DNA of 64,000 nucleotides. Origin: a phage. Position 1 is the stretch's first letter; every line of letters starts with the position of its first letter. The stretch lies in sequence record OZ346212.1. One strand, written 5' to 3'. This document shows, one piece after another, positions 12,338 through 60,649 of this stretch. The position numbers and the translations under genes are program-made. Below the pieces are notes generated by a model. That model did not search any database. It saw only the letters and a program-made list of their open reading frames with translations, and was not told where the DNA came from.

Positions 12338-12583
12338 ATGAACAAAGGGTGGACATTTGTAGACGGCGTTAAAAACATGCCTCTAGGAAAGTATATTGTA
12401 GCCATGGCAGATGAGAATGGCAAGGTTGATTTCGGAGTTTGCGAGGTTGTTCTTGCAGGATCTGGTGACTATGCTCACAAAACTGGGATAATTAACGGTC
12501 ATTTCTACTTTGATTACAACCCTGTTGTGGCGTATATGGCTATGCCAGAGTTCGAGCTCCCAAAGGAAGGTGCAGATGTTTAA
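12338..12583 (+). CDS. hypothetical protein
   Basis: ORF track; RBS CAGGAGA. Confidence 0.45.
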   Translation: MNKGWTFVDGVKNMPLGKYIVAMADENGKVDFGVCEVVLAGSGDYAHKTGIINGHFYFDYNPVVAYMAMPEFELPKEGADV

Positions 12584-12773
12584 GCTTAAATCTGCATGGA
12601 ACATCGCTGTGGGGGACGAGATCCGTATCCCAGGTGGAAAGACCATTATGAAAATATCTCGTATCGAGTACGAAGGTGATCGTGTATTTCATATCTTTGC
12701 AGAAGATGGTCGAGAGATTTATATACAGGTAGGATCTCACATCTATATTCGTAAGAAAGGGGAGGACAAATGA
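12576..12773 (+). CDS. hypothetical protein
   Basis: Start moved to ATG 12576 after RBS AAGGAAGG. Confidence 0.4.
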   Translation: MFKLKSAWNIAVGDEIRIPGGKTIMKISRIEYEGDRVFHIFAEDGREIYIQVGSHIYIRKKGEDK

Positions 12774-13099
12774 CAGAGATCATCATTTCAACTGCAGGGT
12801 ATGTATTCCTGACAATCATTGCACTGGCTATTTTGGTGACAGTGTATGGGTTTGTTATCCTTCCTATCCTTGAGACATTTAGTTTGTGTCGGTGTTGGAG
12901 AAAAGCTTACGGTCCACAACCATGGAAGGACTGGCCCCACCTGGTGCGCTTAGCGTTCTCTTATGCTTACGATCACTCCAGTAGTGCATGCATAACCGGA
13001 TACCACGCCCACAACTGGAGCTGGGAAGGGTTGAGGAAATGGAATGTTACAAAGACCATACCTCTGCGCATGTACAAACCTAAAAACAAAGACAACTGA
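12770..13099 (+). CDS. membrane protein
   Basis: N-terminal hydrophobic helix; RBS GGGGAGGA. Confidence 0.45.
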   Translation: MTEIIISTAGYVFLTIIALAILVTVYGFVILPILETFSLCRCWRKAYGPQPWKDWPHLVRLAFSYAYDHSSSACITGYHAHNWSWEGLRKWNVTKTIPLRMYKPKNKDN

Positions 13100-13705
13100 T
13101 ACTTGAAAATTCCTGGCATATCAAGTATAAGGGGGATTTCTAAAATGGATTTCCTCCTTTTGATATTTCACCGGGCTGGATATTTTAAAATTCTTAGAAA
13201 ATCAGAAAATGGATCGAAAACTAAAATGGATTTTTCAGAGTAGGCGCGACAAGCTGAATAACTCATCCTATCGTTTGCACCATATTCCAGGCCACCATTA
13301 TAGATTTCCCACACATGCTAACCTCTCCCTACTAGAACTTCCTCCACTTACCCTTGACCTTCTATGGTAACAATCTAACCGCTATCTTGAAGTTGCGGTG
13401 CAGCTTTCCAGGTACTCGATCTACTTTTCATTTCAGGGCTTGGATTTTCTGAAAATTTTTCTCGATAAATTTCTCAGTACTCGATCTGTTTTTCGTTTTC
13501 TGAATCGGATTTTCTGGAAATCGTTCCGGCTCTCAACCTGAAATTTTTGGGGACGAAATCGATTTTTCGTTTTCAGAAATGGATTTTTAAAATTTCTATA
13601 TGGGAATATTTTAGTGGATACTGTTTTATAGGAAATTGTTACGGAGGGTAATTAGCATGCTAATTAAATTTATTAAATGCGAGGAGTTCTCATTTAGAAT
13701 TTTGA
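13100..13705. repeat. AT-rich non-coding region with reiterated TGGATTTT-type motifs and ~50-bp direct repeats
   Basis: No credible ORF; motif at ~13147, 13181, 13230, 13440, 13510, 13590; direct repeats at ~13407 and ~13475. Confidence 0.6.
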
Positions 13706-14280
13706 ATGATAATCATTCTCGTTTGCAGAATAACGGGCAGGCCCGGTGATTGTCTCCCGGCCCCTGTTGCCCCGGCTTGTTATTATAGTATCACACAGGA
13801 CAAAGAAAGCAAGGACTTTTTGCATAAATTTTTAAATGATAATGATAACCGTTCTCATTTTATGCAGCGCCCATCCCCGGTGGTTGTCTCCCCCGTCACC
13901 GGTGCCTGCCGTCCTTTCGATATGTATATTGTGCCACCTGGCGGGGCCGCTGTCAACACTTTTCAAAAAATTTTTCTAACCTGGTGCGCTAACCGTTGCA
14001 ACCTGGCGGGGCCAGCCTGGCAGGACCTAACTGACCAGGTAGGGGAGAATGAAGGCTTGTAAACCTGGTGGGCCTATGCTACAGGATAGGTAACAATTGA
14101 AGAGGAGGTACAAAAATGATATGATCCCCCTGGAAAATGTAGCTATTAATGACTCTGAGGCTATCGCCCTGGTTGAAAAGGCTATGGCGGGAGCGTTGGA
14201 ACATAAAGAAGAGTACGAAAATGGTGGTTAACCTGGCGGGGGCGGCAGGTGGATTCTATCATAAAAATAATTTAAAATAG
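13706..14280. repeat. GC-rich repeat family (AACCTGGCGGGGCC) and duplicated ~60-bp segments
   Basis: Motif at ~13936, 14000, 14229 (also 20056); segments 13700-13790 and 13830-13920 share TGATAAT...CCGGTG(A/G)TTGTCTCCC. Confidence 0.55.
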
Positions 14281-14283
14281 TAG

Positions 14284-14311
14284 TTGACAACAAGGTTAAT
14301 CATGGTATTAT
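14284..14311 (+). promoter_or_regulatory. sigma70-like promoter (TTGACA-N16-TATTAT)
   Basis: Read from sequence. Confidence 0.55.
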
Positions 14312-14361
14312 TACCCTACAAGGTGAACAACACCGCACTAACCAGTAAAGAGGATAAATTT

Positions 14362-14559
14362 ATGAACGCATACGGGATCAAAGTACGTCGCAACACTCGC
14401 CAGGTGGTCACCAATCAAGTGATTTGCCGGGTGGATGTAACCATCAACAACGGGCAAGGCCTTTATAAATTTCGTCGCGGTCATAGCTATACCCTGCAAC
14501 AGCTTAATCGTTGCGCCCTGACAAAAGGTCAGATCAACCACTGGTTTAATAAAAAATAA
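14362..14559 (+). CDS. hypothetical early protein
   Basis: ATG 14362 after RBS AAGAGGA. Confidence 0.5.
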   Translation: MNAYGIKVRRNTRQVVTNQVICRVDVTINNGQGLYKFRRGHSYTLQQLNRCALTKGQINHWFNKK

Positions 14560-14623
14560 GTATTGACATACAGTCAGACACCAAATACACTAAAAGCACA
14601 AAAGACACTAAGAGGATAAAATC

Positions 14624-14809
14624 ATGAAAACCACTACCTTTAATTTTGATAATGCAGACTTTTCTTTTTCTGATGTCAAGAACTGCCGCCGTGATCGTGG
14701 ATTTTACAAGGCTTATAATCTGGTGGGCCTGGACGATGACAATAATTTGCACGAAGTAGCTGAGATCCAGCTTGACAGATTGGACGGGAAAGTACTAAAA
14801 ACTTATTGA
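14624..14809 (+). CDS. hypothetical early protein
   Basis: RBS AAGAGGA; own promoter at 14563. Confidence 0.5.
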   Translation: MKTTTFNFDNADFSFSDVKNCRRDRGFYKAYNLVGLDDDNNLHEVAEIQLDRLDGKVLKTY

Positions 14810-14811
14810 GT

Positions 14812-14856
14812 TTATTTTTAGATGGCCTTGACACCAGGGCCATCAATAAAGTAAAC
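14812..14856 (+). repeat. conserved 45-bp promoter-associated element, copy 1
   Basis: TTATTTTTAGATGGCCTTGACACCAGGGCCATCAATAAAGTAAAC; TTGACA sits in the loop of the ATGGCC/GGCCAT inverted repeat. Confidence 0.6.
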
Positions 14857-14889
14857 TAACCACAGTTGAGCGGAAAAGGAGGCTTAAAG

Positions 14890-15036: not shown

Positions 15037-15088
15037 TAAGCACATAAACGGGAAAACTTCCCAGAACACACAAAAGGAGAAAAACACC

Positions 15089-15430
15089 ATGACTACTATG
15101 ACCGCCTCAGAAAAAGCTATGCAGATCGCTGAACTGAAAAAACAGATCGCAGACCTTGAGAATAAGATCGATAACTTTGAAATCGACGAGGACAAGTACG
15201 ACGAAAACTATGATGAATGGTTAGACGAGATCTACGGCGAAATTATGATCGGAAACATTTCTTTTCTTCCGTCGCGTATCCTCAAGGAGCTAGATCCTAT
15301 CGCTTACCGCTGCGGATTTAGCGACTACATCGACAGCCTGGATATTGAGGACGATGAAGAATACCAGGAATTACAGACAGAGTTAGAAGAAGCAAAAGAA
15401 GAGCTTGCGGAGCTGGAAGAAAACGAGTAA
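15089..15430 (+). CDS. acidic coiled-coil protein
   Basis: RBS AAAGGAGA; E/D-rich. Confidence 0.55.
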   Translation: MTTMTASEKAMQIAELKKQIADLENKIDNFEIDEDKYDENYDEWLDEIYGEIMIGNISFLPSRILKELDPIAYRCGFSDYIDSLDIEDDEEYQELQTELEEAKEELAELEENE

Positions 15431-15432
15431 GC

Positions 15433-15477
15433 TTATTTTTAGATGGCCTTGACACCAGGGCCATCAATAAAGTAAAC
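15433..15477 (+). repeat. conserved 45-bp promoter-associated element, copy 2
   Basis: Identical to copy 1. Confidence 0.6.
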
Positions 15478-15519
15478 TTTATACTGTTAACACTGAACTA
15501 ATGCATAGGAGTTAAAACC

Positions 15520-15839: not shown

Positions 15840-16193
15840 ATGATCAGCGGGGCAAGTTTTATTATTGGCGCTATTGCTACGGCTTTAATTGTAAATAAGA
15901 TCCAGGATAAAAAGGAAAGAGGAAGTACCGCCCTTGCAGAATATCCATTTTGGGCATTCAACGATAACGAAGATTATATTATAAAGTATAAAAATAAAGA
16001 AGGTGACCAAGTAACACCGCGACCGATCCCGGCTTACAAAATGCAGGAAACACTATACCGCCTGGAGGCGGGTGGCGCAAAAATTGTAGACTTTTGGGGA
16101 TACGACCACACAGATCAGGAAGTTATAAAGCGCCGTATCCGGGCTATTCAGGCCAATATTGAAGTTAGCAAGGGGGGAATATATGAAAATTAA
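15840..16193 (+). CDS. membrane-anchored protein
   Basis: N-terminal TM helix; RBS AAAGGAGA. Confidence 0.5.
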   Translation: MISGASFIIGAIATALIVNKIQDKKERGSTALAEYPFWAFNDNEDYIIKYKNKEGDQVTPRPIPAYKMQETLYRLEAGGAKIVDFWGYDHTDQEVIKRRIRAIQANIEVSKGGIYEN

Positions 16194-18806: not shown

Positions 18807-18838
18807 GGCCCCCGATCCCTGGGGGGCCTAACTTTTTT
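18807..18838 (+). terminator. intrinsic terminator
   Basis: GGCCCCC...GGGGGGCC followed by TTTTTT. Confidence 0.7.
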
Positions 18839-18861
18839 CAAAAAATTTTTCTTCCGGGGTG

Positions 18862-18890
18862 TTGCAATCCGGTCCTGAATATGGATAATA
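18862..18890 (+). promoter_or_regulatory. sigma70-like promoter (TTGCAA-N17-ATAATA)
   Basis: Read from sequence. Confidence 0.5.
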
Positions 18891-19149: not shown

Positions 19150-19194
19150 TTATTTTTAGATGGCCTTGACTCTAGGGCCATCAATAAAGTAAAT
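19150..19194 (+). repeat. conserved 45-bp promoter-associated element, copy 3
   Basis: Two substitutions relative to copies 1 and 2. Confidence 0.6.
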
Positions 19195-19770: not shown

Positions 19771-20055
19771 ATGGCTATTGTTACCGCTGGCGATGTAGTA
19801 GAAATGGAAGCAAAATACTTAAAAGCGGGTATGCATATCCTACGCAACGATCTTGAACTGGTCCTGACAATGGTTGACTATAACCCAGGGCAAGATTATC
19901 CAAGTGTTGACTACTTTTTTGAGTATGTTGATGAAGAGTTGAAAGAGGATGAGGCCTATTGCGGTGAGTTCTGCAACTTCTTTTGTCCTGATGAGGTTGT
20001 AAAGGTTATCTATCAACCTGGCGTAGCTTTCCCGCTGCACGCTATCAATAAATAA
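19771..20055 (+). CDS. hypothetical early protein
   Basis: RBS TAGGAG. Confidence 0.5.
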   Translation: MAIVTAGDVVEMEAKYLKAGMHILRNDLELVLTMVDYNPGQDYPSVDYFFEYVDEELKEDEAYCGEFCNFFCPDEVVKVIYQPGVAFPLHAINK

Positions 20056-20117
20056 ACCTGGCGGGGCCGAAAAGGCCCCCGCCTGAAATTATGAAAAATA
20101 AAAAGAGGCAAACTATC

Positions 20118-20944: not shown

Positions 20945-21271
20945 AAGCACATAGCCGCCAGATCTCAGAATTTACGTACGCTCACCAGTCTATAGCCTGC
21001 TAAGTATTTATTCCAACCATAGAATAACGGAATAGTCAATACCTGCATAAAATAATTATTCGTGTAAACTGCATAACATAAATCGGCTAGGATGTCAACA
21101 TTTTTCGTAAACAGCTCGAAATTATAACGGTGAGTTATAATAAACAGAGAAATCTTTAGTCGTCTAATGTTTACTGTACATTACTATACTGACTGGAATC
21201 ATTAGATGACTAAGAGAAAGATAAGAAATCATTAACAATGCAATTGTTTTATTCGTAACAATAAGGCAACT

Positions 21272-21563
21272 ATGCAAACGGATGGCATGGCGCGACGGAG
21301 TCGCGACATAATATAAAAGCAGTAACCATCACCCCCGTGATAGTTTGTCTGCAAACTATTAATCAGATCATAGTTGCCTTGTATTTAGTTAATCATGACA
21401 TAACAAGCAAGGCAACTATAGATCTGCTAATAGTTGCCCTGCTTTTATATTATGTCATAGATTATTAGCCTGTTAATTGTTAGTCAGTCAAATCAACAAC
21501 GTTATCATTTCAGTCTTTATTGTTGTTGATCGTTATTGTTATCATGCAAACGAATGGCATGGC
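21272..21563. repeat. dyad-symmetry cluster bounded by 20-bp direct repeats
   Basis: ATGCAAACG(G/A)ATGGCATGGC at 21272 and 21544; between them AGGCAACTAT in both orientations, ATGACATAA/TTATGTCAT and CGCGAC/GTCGCG palindromes. Confidence 0.6.
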
Positions 21564-21936
21564 TTATCATTTTTGAGTAAACAATCTATACGTGAACAGT
21601 GAGGCAAGTTAGCAGCCGATAGATTAGATATTAACCTGCAGACTTCTGACCGTCTAGACGTCTAAACGCCCACACAACAAGGATTATACATACAATACTG
21701 AATGTAAACAGGGCCGCAAAAATGCTACCATACCACAGATTGTAAATTTTTCATGCAGCACTTGACAAAGAGGAGAACTTAATTTTATCAGGATAGGCAA
21801 GAATGTCAAGGCATGACTGCTCACTAAACAAGCAAACAGTCATGTGTGGGAGGTAAGTGATTGTGGTGGTAGGAAATTTAGTTGAAAGATGTGTTATAGG
21901 TGCTTCCAGCACTTTAGCCGGGCAGCTAATTGTGTG

Positions 21937-60094: not shown

Positions 60095-60649
60095 ATGAAA
60101 TACTTTGTAACAAGCGACACACACTTTCTCCACCAGCGGGTCATGGAGTTTGATTCATGTCAAAAACACAGATCTCAGTATGATCACAATCTTGACAGTA
60201 TGAATGCAGGAATCATCGCCGAGTGGAACTCTGTTGTGTCACCTGCAGACACTGTGTTCCACTTGGGAGATATTGCGTGCACTAATGATAAGAATATCAA
60301 CAACTTACTTCCAGATATTCTAAATATGTTGAACGGACATATTATTCTTGTTCGTGGCAACCATGACACAAGGACGACTGTCAGAATTATGAAAGAGTTC
60401 GGTCATGAGGTTGTAGATTATTACGAGCTTCGCCACAACAAGAATTTGATCTGTATGAGCCATTACCAGTTTGCAAAGTGGAACAGAAAGCCTCACGGAT
60501 CAGTCCAACTGTTCGGTCATGCTCACGGAACCACACAACAGTTGTTTGGCAGGCAGCTTGATGTCGGTTGGGATGTGTGGGGGAGACTCTTACCATTAGA
60601 AGAGGCATACCGTATTGCAATGAGTTTTGATATTGACAGCAGGGAGTAA
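60095..60649 (+). CDS. calcineurin-like metallophosphoesterase
   Basis: DTHF, GDIACT, VRGNHD, GHAHG motifs; start moved to ATG 60095. Confidence 0.8.
   Translation: MKYFVTSDTHFLHQRVMEFDSCQKHRSQYDHNLDSMNAGIIAEWNSVVSPADTVFHLGDIACTNDKNINNLLPDILNMLNGHIILVRGNHDTRTTVRIMKEFGHEVVDYYELRHNKNLICMSHYQFAKWNRKPHGSVQLFGHAHGTTQQLFGRQLDVGWDVWGRLLPLEEAYRIAMSFDIDSRE

Follow-up and report, generated by a model that had tools for sequence, protein, structure and literature searches.

Positions 13675-14283 of the phage DNA analysed here (sequence record OZ346212.1, a stretch of 64,000 nucleotides referred to below as the window) are read by us, with middling confidence, as a non-coding transcription-control region that is neither a gene nor a family of RNA hairpins. 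The region would be built on a duplicated promoter module with boxes for the regulator Fur, accompanied by GC-rich repeat DNA, a description to which we give about an even chance. Each proposed unit consists of a Fur operator, a conserved 13-mer ~25 bp to its right and a leftward sigma-70 promoter 40-70 bp further right, which would be aimed back at both. Our confidence in the anatomy of the region is high and in the regulatory logic low; the activity of the promoters and the direction of control are deduced from the sequence.

By sequence identity the source is a virulent, rV5-like phage of the genus Vequintavirus. It is 99% identical to Escherichia phage EdH4 between 13000 and 15000, and nearly all of the 124 phage records that match this interval at ≥80% identity are rV5-like myoviruses of the same genus. 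EdH4 is collinear with the window across the region (12501-14768 aligned at 99%), and its genome was used to represent the ~72 kb outside the window. The surroundings are a block of small rightward genes of early type with many consensus sigma-70 promoters.

Fur boxes and the duplicated unit

A sequence-only reading of this DNA had described two duplicated segments of ~60 bp, which proved to be real. Local alignment of 13690-13815 with 13826-13960 covered ~55 nt with a score of 36, compared with 14.8 ± 2.3 in 500 shuffles (maximum 26), and the duplication is also seen as repeat families D4, D6 and D13. The two segments are true paralogues, tandem copies that have diverged. Their shared start, TGATAATGATAA...ATTCTC, is a Fur-box palindrome, a feature that the first reading missed.

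Three Fur-type boxes were located (Table 1). Those at 13838 and 13702 are the top two matches in the 64 kb to the Fur consensus GATAATGATAATCATTATC, for which base-shuffled controls gave 0.03 sites at ≤3 mismatches and 0.33 at ≤4; the remaining ~72 kb holds no site at ≤3 mismatches and one at 4 (L148 31610; handles of this type denote loci and contigs in our own lists). Box B is invariant within the genus and kept in other genera, and the position of box A is occupied by a good second Fur box in GAP31, KpS8 and 4MG. As a positive control, 20 kb of the E. coli K-12 enterobactin (ent/fep) cluster was scanned at ≤4 mismatches, and sites were found only in the fepD-entS and fepB-entC control regions, with 3-4 mismatches. 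The phage sites, also at 3-4 mismatches, equal these and are therefore as good as established Fur operators. Dyad symmetry of the 7-1-7 or 9-1-9 type is present as well, as AATGATAATCATTCTCGTT in the window and as the perfect 9-1-9 palindrome AATGAGAATCATTCTCATT in PVP-SE1, the Hena1-like locus and L113. Binding of Fur-Fe2+ to the phage boxes is thus predicted with moderate confidence.

Table 1. Features of the control region and its neighbourhood, with corresponding sites in other phages (promoters as -35 hexamer, spacer, -10 hexamer)
Feature	Position	Strand	Sequence or arrangement	Remarks
AT-rich tandem repeats, three, ~65-74 bp	13402..13587	none		directly left of the control region; repeat families D1, D2, D8, D9
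Perfect 18-bp palindrome	13649..13666	none	TAATTAGCATGCTAATTA	just left of the Fur boxes
Degenerate Fur-like box A	13675..13695	none	AAATGCGAGGAGTTCTCATTT	five mismatches to the phage palindrome AATGAGAATCATTCTCATT
Fur box B	13702..13723	none	19-mer TTGAATGATAATCATTCTC; palindrome AATGATAATCATTCTCGTT	starts segment 1; four mismatches to GATAATGATAATCATTATC
Weak rightward promoter-like site	13702..13731	+	TTGAAT-18-CAGAAT	Fur box B as spacer; 8/12; uncertain
Conserved 13-mer	13745..13757		GGTGATTGTCTCC (- strand GGAGACAATCACC); form GGTG(A/G)TTGTCTCC	in GC-rich imperfect hairpin 13733-13776
Candidate promoter P(-)1	13785..13812	-	TTGCTT (13812>13807), 16-nt spacer, TACTAT (13790>13785)	AT-rich tract upstream; 8/12 by hand count
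Fur box C	13838..13856	none	GATAATGATAACCGTTCTC	starts segment 2; three mismatches to GATAATGATAATCATTATC, best in window; conserved in the genus
Second 13-mer copy	13879..13891	none	GGTGGTTGTCTCC	repeat family D13, alignment
Candidate promoter P(-)2	13928..13956	-	TTGACA (13956>13951), 17-nt spacer, CACAAT (13933>13928) preceded by TG	10/12
AT tract	13957..13977	none	ACTTTTCAAAAAATTTTTC	UP-element position, directly upstream of the P(-)2 -35
GC-rich motif copies (mismatches)	13935 (1), 14000 (0), 14062 (2), 14230 (1), 20055 (0)	+	AACCTGGYGSGGCC	motif scan
GC-rich motif copy, ≤2 mismatches	12933	-	AACCTGGYGSGGCC	motif scan
Motif copies 13978 (weak) and 14000 (perfect)	13978..14013	+	flanking -35-like TTGCAA (13995-14000)	sequence reading, motif scan
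Short inverted repeat	14016..14039	none	CCTGG...CCAGG	within 50-nt segment 14013-14062 missing from four relatives
Motif copy 14062 inside weak promoter-like site	14057..14086	+	TTGTAA-17-TACAGG	upstream of small gene; uncertain
Small-gene remnant, homologue of EdH4_00028 (57 aa, phrog_21957)	14103..14280	+		ribosome-binding site GAGGAGG 14103-14109; ATG 14116
Early promoter	14284..14311	+	TTGACA-16-TATTAT	ordinary, serves next gene; right edge of the control region
Stem-loop, isolated motif copy	20055..20083	+	GGCGGGGCC-GAAAA-GGCCCCCGCC	directly after the stop of ORF 19771-20055
Repeated promoters with GC-rich spacer layout	14828, 15449		TTGACA-CCAGGGCC...	
Variant of these	19166		TTGACT-CTAGGGCC...	
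KpS8, F1M1E, POP15 leftward promoter			TTGCAA-17-TATATT	
PVP-SE1, GAP31 leftward promoter			TTGATC-16-TATTAT	
Hena1-like leftward promoter			TTGACC-17-GATAAT	
L113 leftward promoter			TTGACC-17-GATACT	
L052 leftward promoter			TTGACT-17-CATAAT	
PVP-SE1 gp201 promoter			TTGCAT-CCTGGCGGGGATCGTG-TACTAT	leftward gene; CC(A/T)GG + G/C-run spacer
KpS8 P(-)1			TTGCAA-CCTGGGGCC...	leftward; CC(A/T)GG + G/C-run spacer
POP15 promoter			TTGACA-TCCAGGCCGGGCC...-CACAAT	CC(A/T)GG + G/C-run spacer
~95-nt conserved block of other genera	L005 2640-2740, L006 2670-2765, L004 2700-2775, L136-L140, L250			would be transcribed leftward

Sensitive blastn of 13371-14320 retrieved 248 phage records. Those from outside Vequintavirus align over 13664-13813 only, with 71-88% identity, and not over the flanking non-coding DNA. 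The aligning lineages comprise Phapecoctavirus (Stephanstirmvirinae), the Vequintavirinae genera Mydovirus, Seunavirus and Certrevirus, Erwinia phage Hena1 and others, and their homologous loci are almost all unannotated. The layout there is constant: one to four adjacent Fur-type palindromes, often the perfect AATGAGAATCATTCTCATT, are followed by TTTGCAGAAT(g/a)(a/g)C(g/a)GGCA, by a GC-rich stretch with CGGTG(A/T)TTGTCTC and finally by a leftward sigma-70 promoter ~100 nt from the box. That the module came from a host was considered and rejected, as none of 185,579 bacterial and archaeal species genomes contains it; all of the pattern matches in them (7/7) were chance matches in unrelated coding DNA. 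In a metagenome scan the pattern was too degenerate and gave mostly chance matches, with L160 and L250 as the only new true variants.

The palindrome in the form AATGA(G/T)AATCATTCTC(A/G)TTT occurs in more than 120 IMG/VR contigs. Among the matches listed (at least 120; L007-L126), eight stand in a T5-like context, as judged from sequence, and five in an rV5-like one, while 13 unrelated contigs carry it directly after a consensus promoter, TTGACA-17-TG-TAAAAT(-CGGCGCC), an operator-like placement that corresponds to the classic operator position. About half of these listed loci, on very different kinds of contig, have at least three box-like sites.

The 13-mer is conserved as a sequence, which points to recognition by a protein or to base pairing. 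The string GGAGAAAAACACC (15076-15088), directly before the ATG at 15089 and on the ribosome-binding site of that open reading frame (ORF), is complementary to the 13-mer at 11-12 of its 13 positions. A search for complements of the 13-mer gave seven matches against 2.7 expected, a marginal excess (2/100 shuffles reach seven), and the homologous loci of other genera yielded no counterpart of the 15076-15088 pairing site.

Seunavirus, Mydovirus, Certrevirus and Phapecoctavirus also share a non-coding block of ~95 nt (CTACCGGCGATCCACCTTCC...GCCCCGCCTTTTCGCCGTGGGGTGGCG) between two leftward promoters (Table 1). It has no conserved reading frame and no Rfam match, and contains a stem with some covariation (ACCAGG/CCUGGU vs ACCGGG/CCUGGU; CG..CG vs CA..TG). 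Vequintavirus lacks the block and has the second Fur module in its place.

Candidate facing promoters and a proposed link to host iron

Both leftward promoters of the window are recognisable in relatives. P(-)2 is kept in rV5, and L135 has TTGACA-16-TATTAT at that position. At the site homologous to P(-)1, leftward promoters scoring 9-11/12 with unrelated spacers were found in PVP-SE1, GAP31, KpS8, F1M1E, POP15, the Hena1-like locus, L113 and L052, and this score holds for every distant lineage scanned that passed the threshold. In total the scan gave these eight distant loci and three Vequintavirus sites, at an offset of ~+100 from the Fur box. A leftward promoter was also read by eye in L160 and L250, and in anhysbys as TTGCTT-16-TATTCT, which falls below the scan threshold. 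The conserved hexamers, the turnover of the spacers and the AT tract upstream of the -35 together form the signature expected of a working promoter. The same promoter design drives a real leftward gene in KpS8, PVP-SE1 and GAP31. On the opposite strand, TTGAAT-18-CAGAAT occurs at the same offset in 7/12 loci scanned.

Elsewhere in the window, 18807-18890 shows the normal intergenic order of this phage: a canonical terminator (GGCCCCC-GATCCCT-GGGGGGCC plus a T-run), then the AT tract TTTTTTCAAAAAATTTTTC (18832-18853, the same as 13957-13977), then a TTGCAA promoter.

We propose that the module might act as follows. In copy 1, Fur box B would also form the spacer of the weak rightward promoter, giving a face-to-face pair with predicted starts ~40 nt apart (~13737 rightward, ~13778 leftward); the predicted leftward start of P(-)2 is at ~13921. 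When iron is present, Fur-Fe2+ bound to two or three boxes would block the rightward promoter, stall the leftward transcripts, or both, and in both modules bound Fur would constitute a protein block ~55-110 nt downstream of the leftward starts. When iron is scarce, Fur would leave the boxes and the balance of opposing transcripts would shift. Expression around this early-gene junction would in this way be coupled to the iron status of the host. The phage has a plausible stake in iron: EdH4 encodes the iron-dependent enzymes NrdA/NrdB and NrdD/NrdG.

Several observations weigh against this scheme. Fur binding is predicted from a consensus match, and the Fur boxes lie ~55-110 nt downstream of the leftward starts, which is unusual for a repressor. 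The rightward promoter reaches only 8/12, has lost the A at position 2 of its -10 hexamer in KpS8 and L113 and is not detectable in copy 2; being weak and partly degraded, it may therefore not be subject to classic occlusion by Fur. The strongly conserved 13-mer is left unexplained by a model of Fur and promoters. No transcriptome of an rV5-like phage was found in the literature.

A serious alternative, although we consider it distinctly unlikely, is that the boxes act mainly as decoys: two or three strong boxes per replicating genome, in hundreds of copies, would titrate Fur and derepress host iron uptake for the ribonucleotide reductases, and the GC-rich repeats would be incidental. Multicopy Fur boxes are known to titrate Fur, as in the FURTA plasmid assay credited to Stojiljkovic and colleagues in 1994, which we count in favour of such a role. 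The boxes equal bona fide E. coli sites in quality, they are multiple, and they are conserved across subfamilies without a conserved downstream gene, in a phage that encodes both NrdAB and NrdDG. However, they are tightly tied to the 13-mer and the leftward promoter at fixed offsets, which a pure decoy would not need.

More broadly, it is possible, if doubtful, that large virulent phages of enterobacteria (Vequintavirinae, Phapecoctavirus and, by the shared palindrome, T5-like and many uncultured phages) carry conserved Fur operators in non-coding modules. These would serve to sense iron, by switching opposing early transcripts, or to titrate Fur, by opening host iron uptake for the phages' own iron-dependent ribonucleotide reductases.

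The phage boxes resemble the enterobacterial Fur operators of fepB-entC and fepD-entS in that 19-bp palindromes match GATAATGATAATCATTATC equally well, several boxes are adjacent and one lies in a promoter-like spacer. They differ in lying between opposing promoters in non-coding DNA and in belonging to a phage-specific 13-mer module. The stx1 promoter is an example of Fur-controlled cargo on a temperate phage. Another such cargo is sitABCD on lambdoid phages (PMC6969025). Unlike such cargo, the present boxes belong to a virulent phage and are followed by no iron-related gene. Our literature search for Fur boxes in Vequintavirinae or in virulent phages returned only Fur-controlled cargo operons on temperate phages. 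What would be new here is a Fur-operated type of promoter in a virulent phage, non-coding and conserved across two subfamilies.

Face-to-face pR-pL promoter switches that work by transcriptional interference occur in P2/186-type phages. The arrangement described here shares with them the opposing sigma-70 promoters, the predicted starts tens of bp apart and a repressor operator at one of the promoters. In contrast, the P2/186 switches decide between lysis and lysogeny with phage repressors, whereas here the phage is virulent, the repressor is presumed to be host Fur and the rightward promoter is weak.

Should the Fur boxes prove functional, widespread lytic coliphages of broad host range, which are candidates for therapy, would tie part of their early programme to the iron status of the host. 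Since little iron is available in the gut or in the course of an infection, phage efficacy in vivo could be affected. Functional boxes would also provide a clear example of a virulent phage that borrows a global regulator of its host through a conserved non-coding module and not through a gene. Such modules escape gene-based annotation, and this one has either been left without annotation or been mistaken for a hypothetical ORF (rV5 ORF198, phrog_14993). In practical terms, the analysis disposes of a spurious ORF, accounts for local hot spots of indels and provides exact coordinates for mutagenesis.

The GC-rich motif and its stem-loop outlier

The GC-rich motif AACCTGGYGSGGCC is non-random. 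Allowing ≤2 mismatches, six matches were found in the 64-kb window against 0.59 ± 0.78 expected, and 0/100 shuffles reached six. The copies listed by the sequence-only reading at 13936, 14000, 14063, 14229 and 20056 were recovered within 1 nt, and its copy at ~13979 turned out to be weaker, with three mismatches (AACCTGGTGCGCTA). The core CCTGG[CT][GA]GG is present seven times on the + strand and never on the - strand, and CCWGG has nine sites in 13937-14232, compared with at most three in every other 500-nt bin. The motif is a local cluster (13935-14243) with an outlier at 20055. It is not the genome-wide family that had been implied, because the ~72 kb outside the window add a single match, with two mismatches, inside a structural gene.

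The copies look like duplicated promoter-associated DNA that also drives slippage. Read on the - strand, copy 13935-13948 is the 17-nt spacer of P(-)2, GCGGCCCCGCCAGGTGG, with a GC fraction of 0.88, compared with 0.3-0.5 for the spacers of other nearby early promoters. Copies 14000 and 14062 come directly after the -35-like hexamers TTGCAA and TTGTAA of the + strand. The - strand of 13978..14013 reads TTGCAA-17-TAGAAA, a promoter-like string with a defective -10 in which copy 13978 is the spacer. The -10 of the 14057..14086 site reads TACAGG here, without the T at position 6, and is TATAGG or TATAAA in relatives. A -35 hexamer with CC(A/T)GG and a G/C run right behind it is a layout also seen in real promoters of related phages and in repeated promoters of the window (Table 1). 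The motif would accordingly be repeat material at the DNA level that belongs to promoter elements: one copy forms the P(-)2 spacer, two would flank the -35-like hexamers of decayed or weak promoters and one lies in the 3' end of a small gene. The ends of indels among relatives fall in motif copies, a 14-nt deletion in Alma takes out exactly one copy, and the 50 nt between copies 14000 and 14062 are missing in four phages. The copies would thus be points of slippage and recombination, which would account for the indels between relatives.

On the - strand, 16052-16080 holds a leftward promoter-like TTGCGC-17-TATAGT with an 82% GC spacer containing CCAGG, inside the rightward ORF 15840-16193. This site resembles the promoter of the leftward gene of KpS8.

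Two features of the copies speak against assigning them to promoters. They are highly alike (14000 and 20055 agree at 14/14 positions) and confined to one strand (7:0), as expected of an array of binding sites for some protein, and the -10 hexamers of the weak promoters proposed for copies 14000 and 14062 are defective. The copies might accordingly be same-orientation operators or iterons for a phage DNA-binding protein, an early repressor or a replication initiator, with the AT-rich repeats as the unwinding region of an origin; we regard this as unlikely. The density of CCWGG sites (nine in 300 bp), the spacing of the first three copies at 43-44 and 22 bp (~4 and ~2 helical turns) in most of the relatives with all three detected, the direct repeats running one way beside AT-rich tandem repeats 350 bp to the left, and the recurrence of CC(A/T)GG plus G/C-run strings in promoter spacers of other genera are consistent with such an array. 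The copy spacings in the window (43, 22, 62 and 168 bp) suggested helical phasing, but across relatives it is kept only for the first three copies; indels change the other spacings (14, 19, 29 and 168-177 bp). Relatives freely lose copies, the GC-rich string takes either orientation relative to the promoter in other genera, and no candidate binding protein was identified. A replication origin in particular was rejected, since 12500-14500 contains no DnaA or IHF consensus sites and phasing is not conserved.

The cluster may instead be functionless debris, short GC-rich repeats left by slippage or illegitimate recombination where a leftward gene and a conserved block were lost, which we hold to be quite unlikely. 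This would agree with the 14- and 50-nt deletions that end in motif copies, with the frameshift in the small gene at 14116 and with the lack of an RNA stability signal in the cluster. It would also agree with the absence from the window of any homologue of the small leftward gene and the ~95-nt block that PVP-SE1, KpS8, GAP31 and anhysbys hold at the equivalent place. Against it, relatives that diverge by 10-18% in the rest of the region show almost no change in copies 13935 and 14000 or in their flanks, and copy 13935 occupies precisely the spacer of a well-formed promoter.

Contrary to what the first reading had implied with its hairpins and processing sites, the motif copies are not a family of RNA structures. 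Folding of the cluster resembles that of shuffles on both strands (z -0.55 to +0.35), RNAalifold gave four pairs, none compensatory, at -0.86 kcal/mol, and Rfam had no match in 13000-14500 at E up to 10 and none in the homologous loci; a tRNA scan of the region was negative. The hairpin of the module at 13733-13776 has z -0.35 on the + strand and is weakly stable on the - strand (z -1.95), and the GC-rich DNA between the facing promoters makes no convincing conserved hairpin. That the region encodes structured small RNAs or processing sites, with motif copies as stem arms, is in our view very improbable. Such RNAs would be in line with the stability of the 20055 copy and of the stem at 14231-14250 (both z about -3.3), the only ones to fold better than shuffles. 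They would also fit the fact that transcripts from P(-)1 or P(-)2 would include the 13-mer, and the nested hairpin that is possible between the Fur box and P(-)1 in several genera, built there on differing stems (CCGG/CCGG, GCG/CGC, CGG/CCG). However, single-sequence z-scores are mostly between -0.5 and +0.5, the 14231-14250 stem is not kept in rV5-type relatives, and the outer pairs of the 20055 stem change without compensation.

The copy at 20055 is a separate intergenic stem-loop, linked to the cluster by sequence alone. Its hairpin (20057-20083; -19.7 kcal/mol, z -3.34) has a 9-bp GC stem and a 5-nt loop, and the 6-bp core GGGGCC/GGCCCC is invariant in four phages. As the first reading had observed, it lacks a U-tract on the + strand, on which it is followed by UGAAAUUAUGAAAAA; a T-rich tail is found on the - strand only. 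The position right after a stop codon and the form of the stem are like those of intrinsic terminators and other GC-rich stem-loops of early regions, but the missing U-tract on the coding strand is unlike a terminator. The stem is not in our terminator-scan list, nor was it annotated as a terminator by the curators of HdK5. It perhaps stabilises a transcript or blocks antisense transcription.

Three further explanations of the motif strings were tried and rejected. A sigma-54 promoter for the TGGC...TTGCA strings has its spacing 2 nt off (checked by eye). The window has a single exact Chi, GCTGGTGG, which lies on the - strand at 60137, a long way from the region, and near-matches of the CCTGGTGG type are not enriched here. 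The minus-strand motif ends (...GCCA / ...ACCA) were considered as tRNA-like 3' ends, and ARAGORN placed tRNAs only at 63.6 kb.

Reading frames and genome neighbourhood

ORF 13706-14062 is not a real conserved gene, in agreement with the doubt that the first reading had cast on it. The frame is present, with 118 aa here, and its ATG, which is part of the conserved Fur-box palindrome, has no upstream Shine-Dalgarno sequence. Neither frame nor length is kept across relatives: close relatives have 118, 40, 14, 92, 109, 7, 132 or 95 aa (92 in rV5 and others, 132 in slur12), single-base changes shorten the frame to 40, 14 and 7 codons in EdH4, Alma and L133, respectively, and it closes after 6-7 codons in KpS8 and anhysbys. 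The alternative of a true gene, annotated in some relatives as rV5 ORF198 or phrog_14993, could point to the 92-codon version, which is open in rV5 and several relatives, and to a phrog_14993 match with E = 2e-64. Against the truncations, the missing ribosome-binding site and the lack of a Pfam match, and with phrog_14993 reflecting propagated annotation, we find it extremely improbable. The idea that either strand of the module encodes a small peptide or a leaderless ORF was also rejected, since frames are not kept between genera. Annotation of ~13371-14100 is inconsistent, with EdH4, Alma, rV5, CM1, BP9, slur12, WM and naam calling different small ORFs or none.

Further right, the homologue of EdH4_00028 is frameshifted here by a 7-nt deletion right after the ATG at 14116 and a 1-nt deletion in an A-run, whose length varies in relatives and shifts the C-terminal frame. 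Motif copy 14230 lies within the 3' part of this homologue. The promoter that bounds the region at 14284-14311 is the annotated promoter P195B of the rV5 record.

To the left of the Fur boxes, the AT-rich repeats at 13402-13587 are related to others at 13098-13233, spaced by 81 bp. Their common core is ...CTCGATCT.TTTTC.TTTC...GGATTTTCTG.AAA, they lie in a non-coding stretch, and comparable AT-rich repeats precede the Fur boxes at the equivalent place in other genera. The palindrome at 13649-13666 is kept within the genus, and only its central GCATGC varies. The motif cluster has 51-55% GC; the description of the genome as otherwise AT-rich was overstated, because GC is ~43% overall (37-48% per kb).

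Compared with EdH4, the window lacks 685 bp at ~14768. One promoter, TTGACACCAGGGCCATCAATAAAGTAAACT, is found in identical form at 14828 and 15449, within the 49-nt repeats 14809-14857 and 15430-15478, and in variant form at 19166. Recombination between such repeated promoters may therefore delete or add gene cassettes.

Over these regions, about 17-21 'Campylobacter phage' records (MG0656xx, with C. jejuni as host) share 93-98% identity with rV5-like phages of E. coli, and their host label looks doubtful.

Untranslated repeats are also known from the iss region of T5, which has DnaA boxes, palindromes and direct repeats (bioRxiv 10.1101/866236). The literature describes these T5 regions with DnaA boxes and not with Fur boxes. 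Like the region studied here, they are more conserved than the neighbouring small ORFs, and T5-like contigs carry the palindrome AATGAGAATCATTCTCATTT. Unlike it, the T5 region is part of the terminal repeat and is linked with two-step injection and with DnaA boxes, the latter being absent here. In contigs L046, L053 and L100, AATGAGAATCATTCTCATTT stands beside DnaA boxes.

The control region was rejected as a genome terminus, since the 514-bp direct terminal repeat of the related Klebsiella phage KPP-1 maps elsewhere, to a convergent gene junction. This junction is equivalent to 21000-21700 of the window, an AT-rich (37% GC), gene-free interval on which rightward and leftward gene blocks converge, and the KPP-1 repeat has Fur-like boxes of its own. 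The interval contains the repeats ATGCAAACG(G/A)ATGGCATGGC at 21273 and 21546 and several copies of GGCAACTAT/ATAGTTGCC. Because the KPP-1 repeat maps to the equivalent place, by analogy 21000-21700 may be the physical end of the genome.

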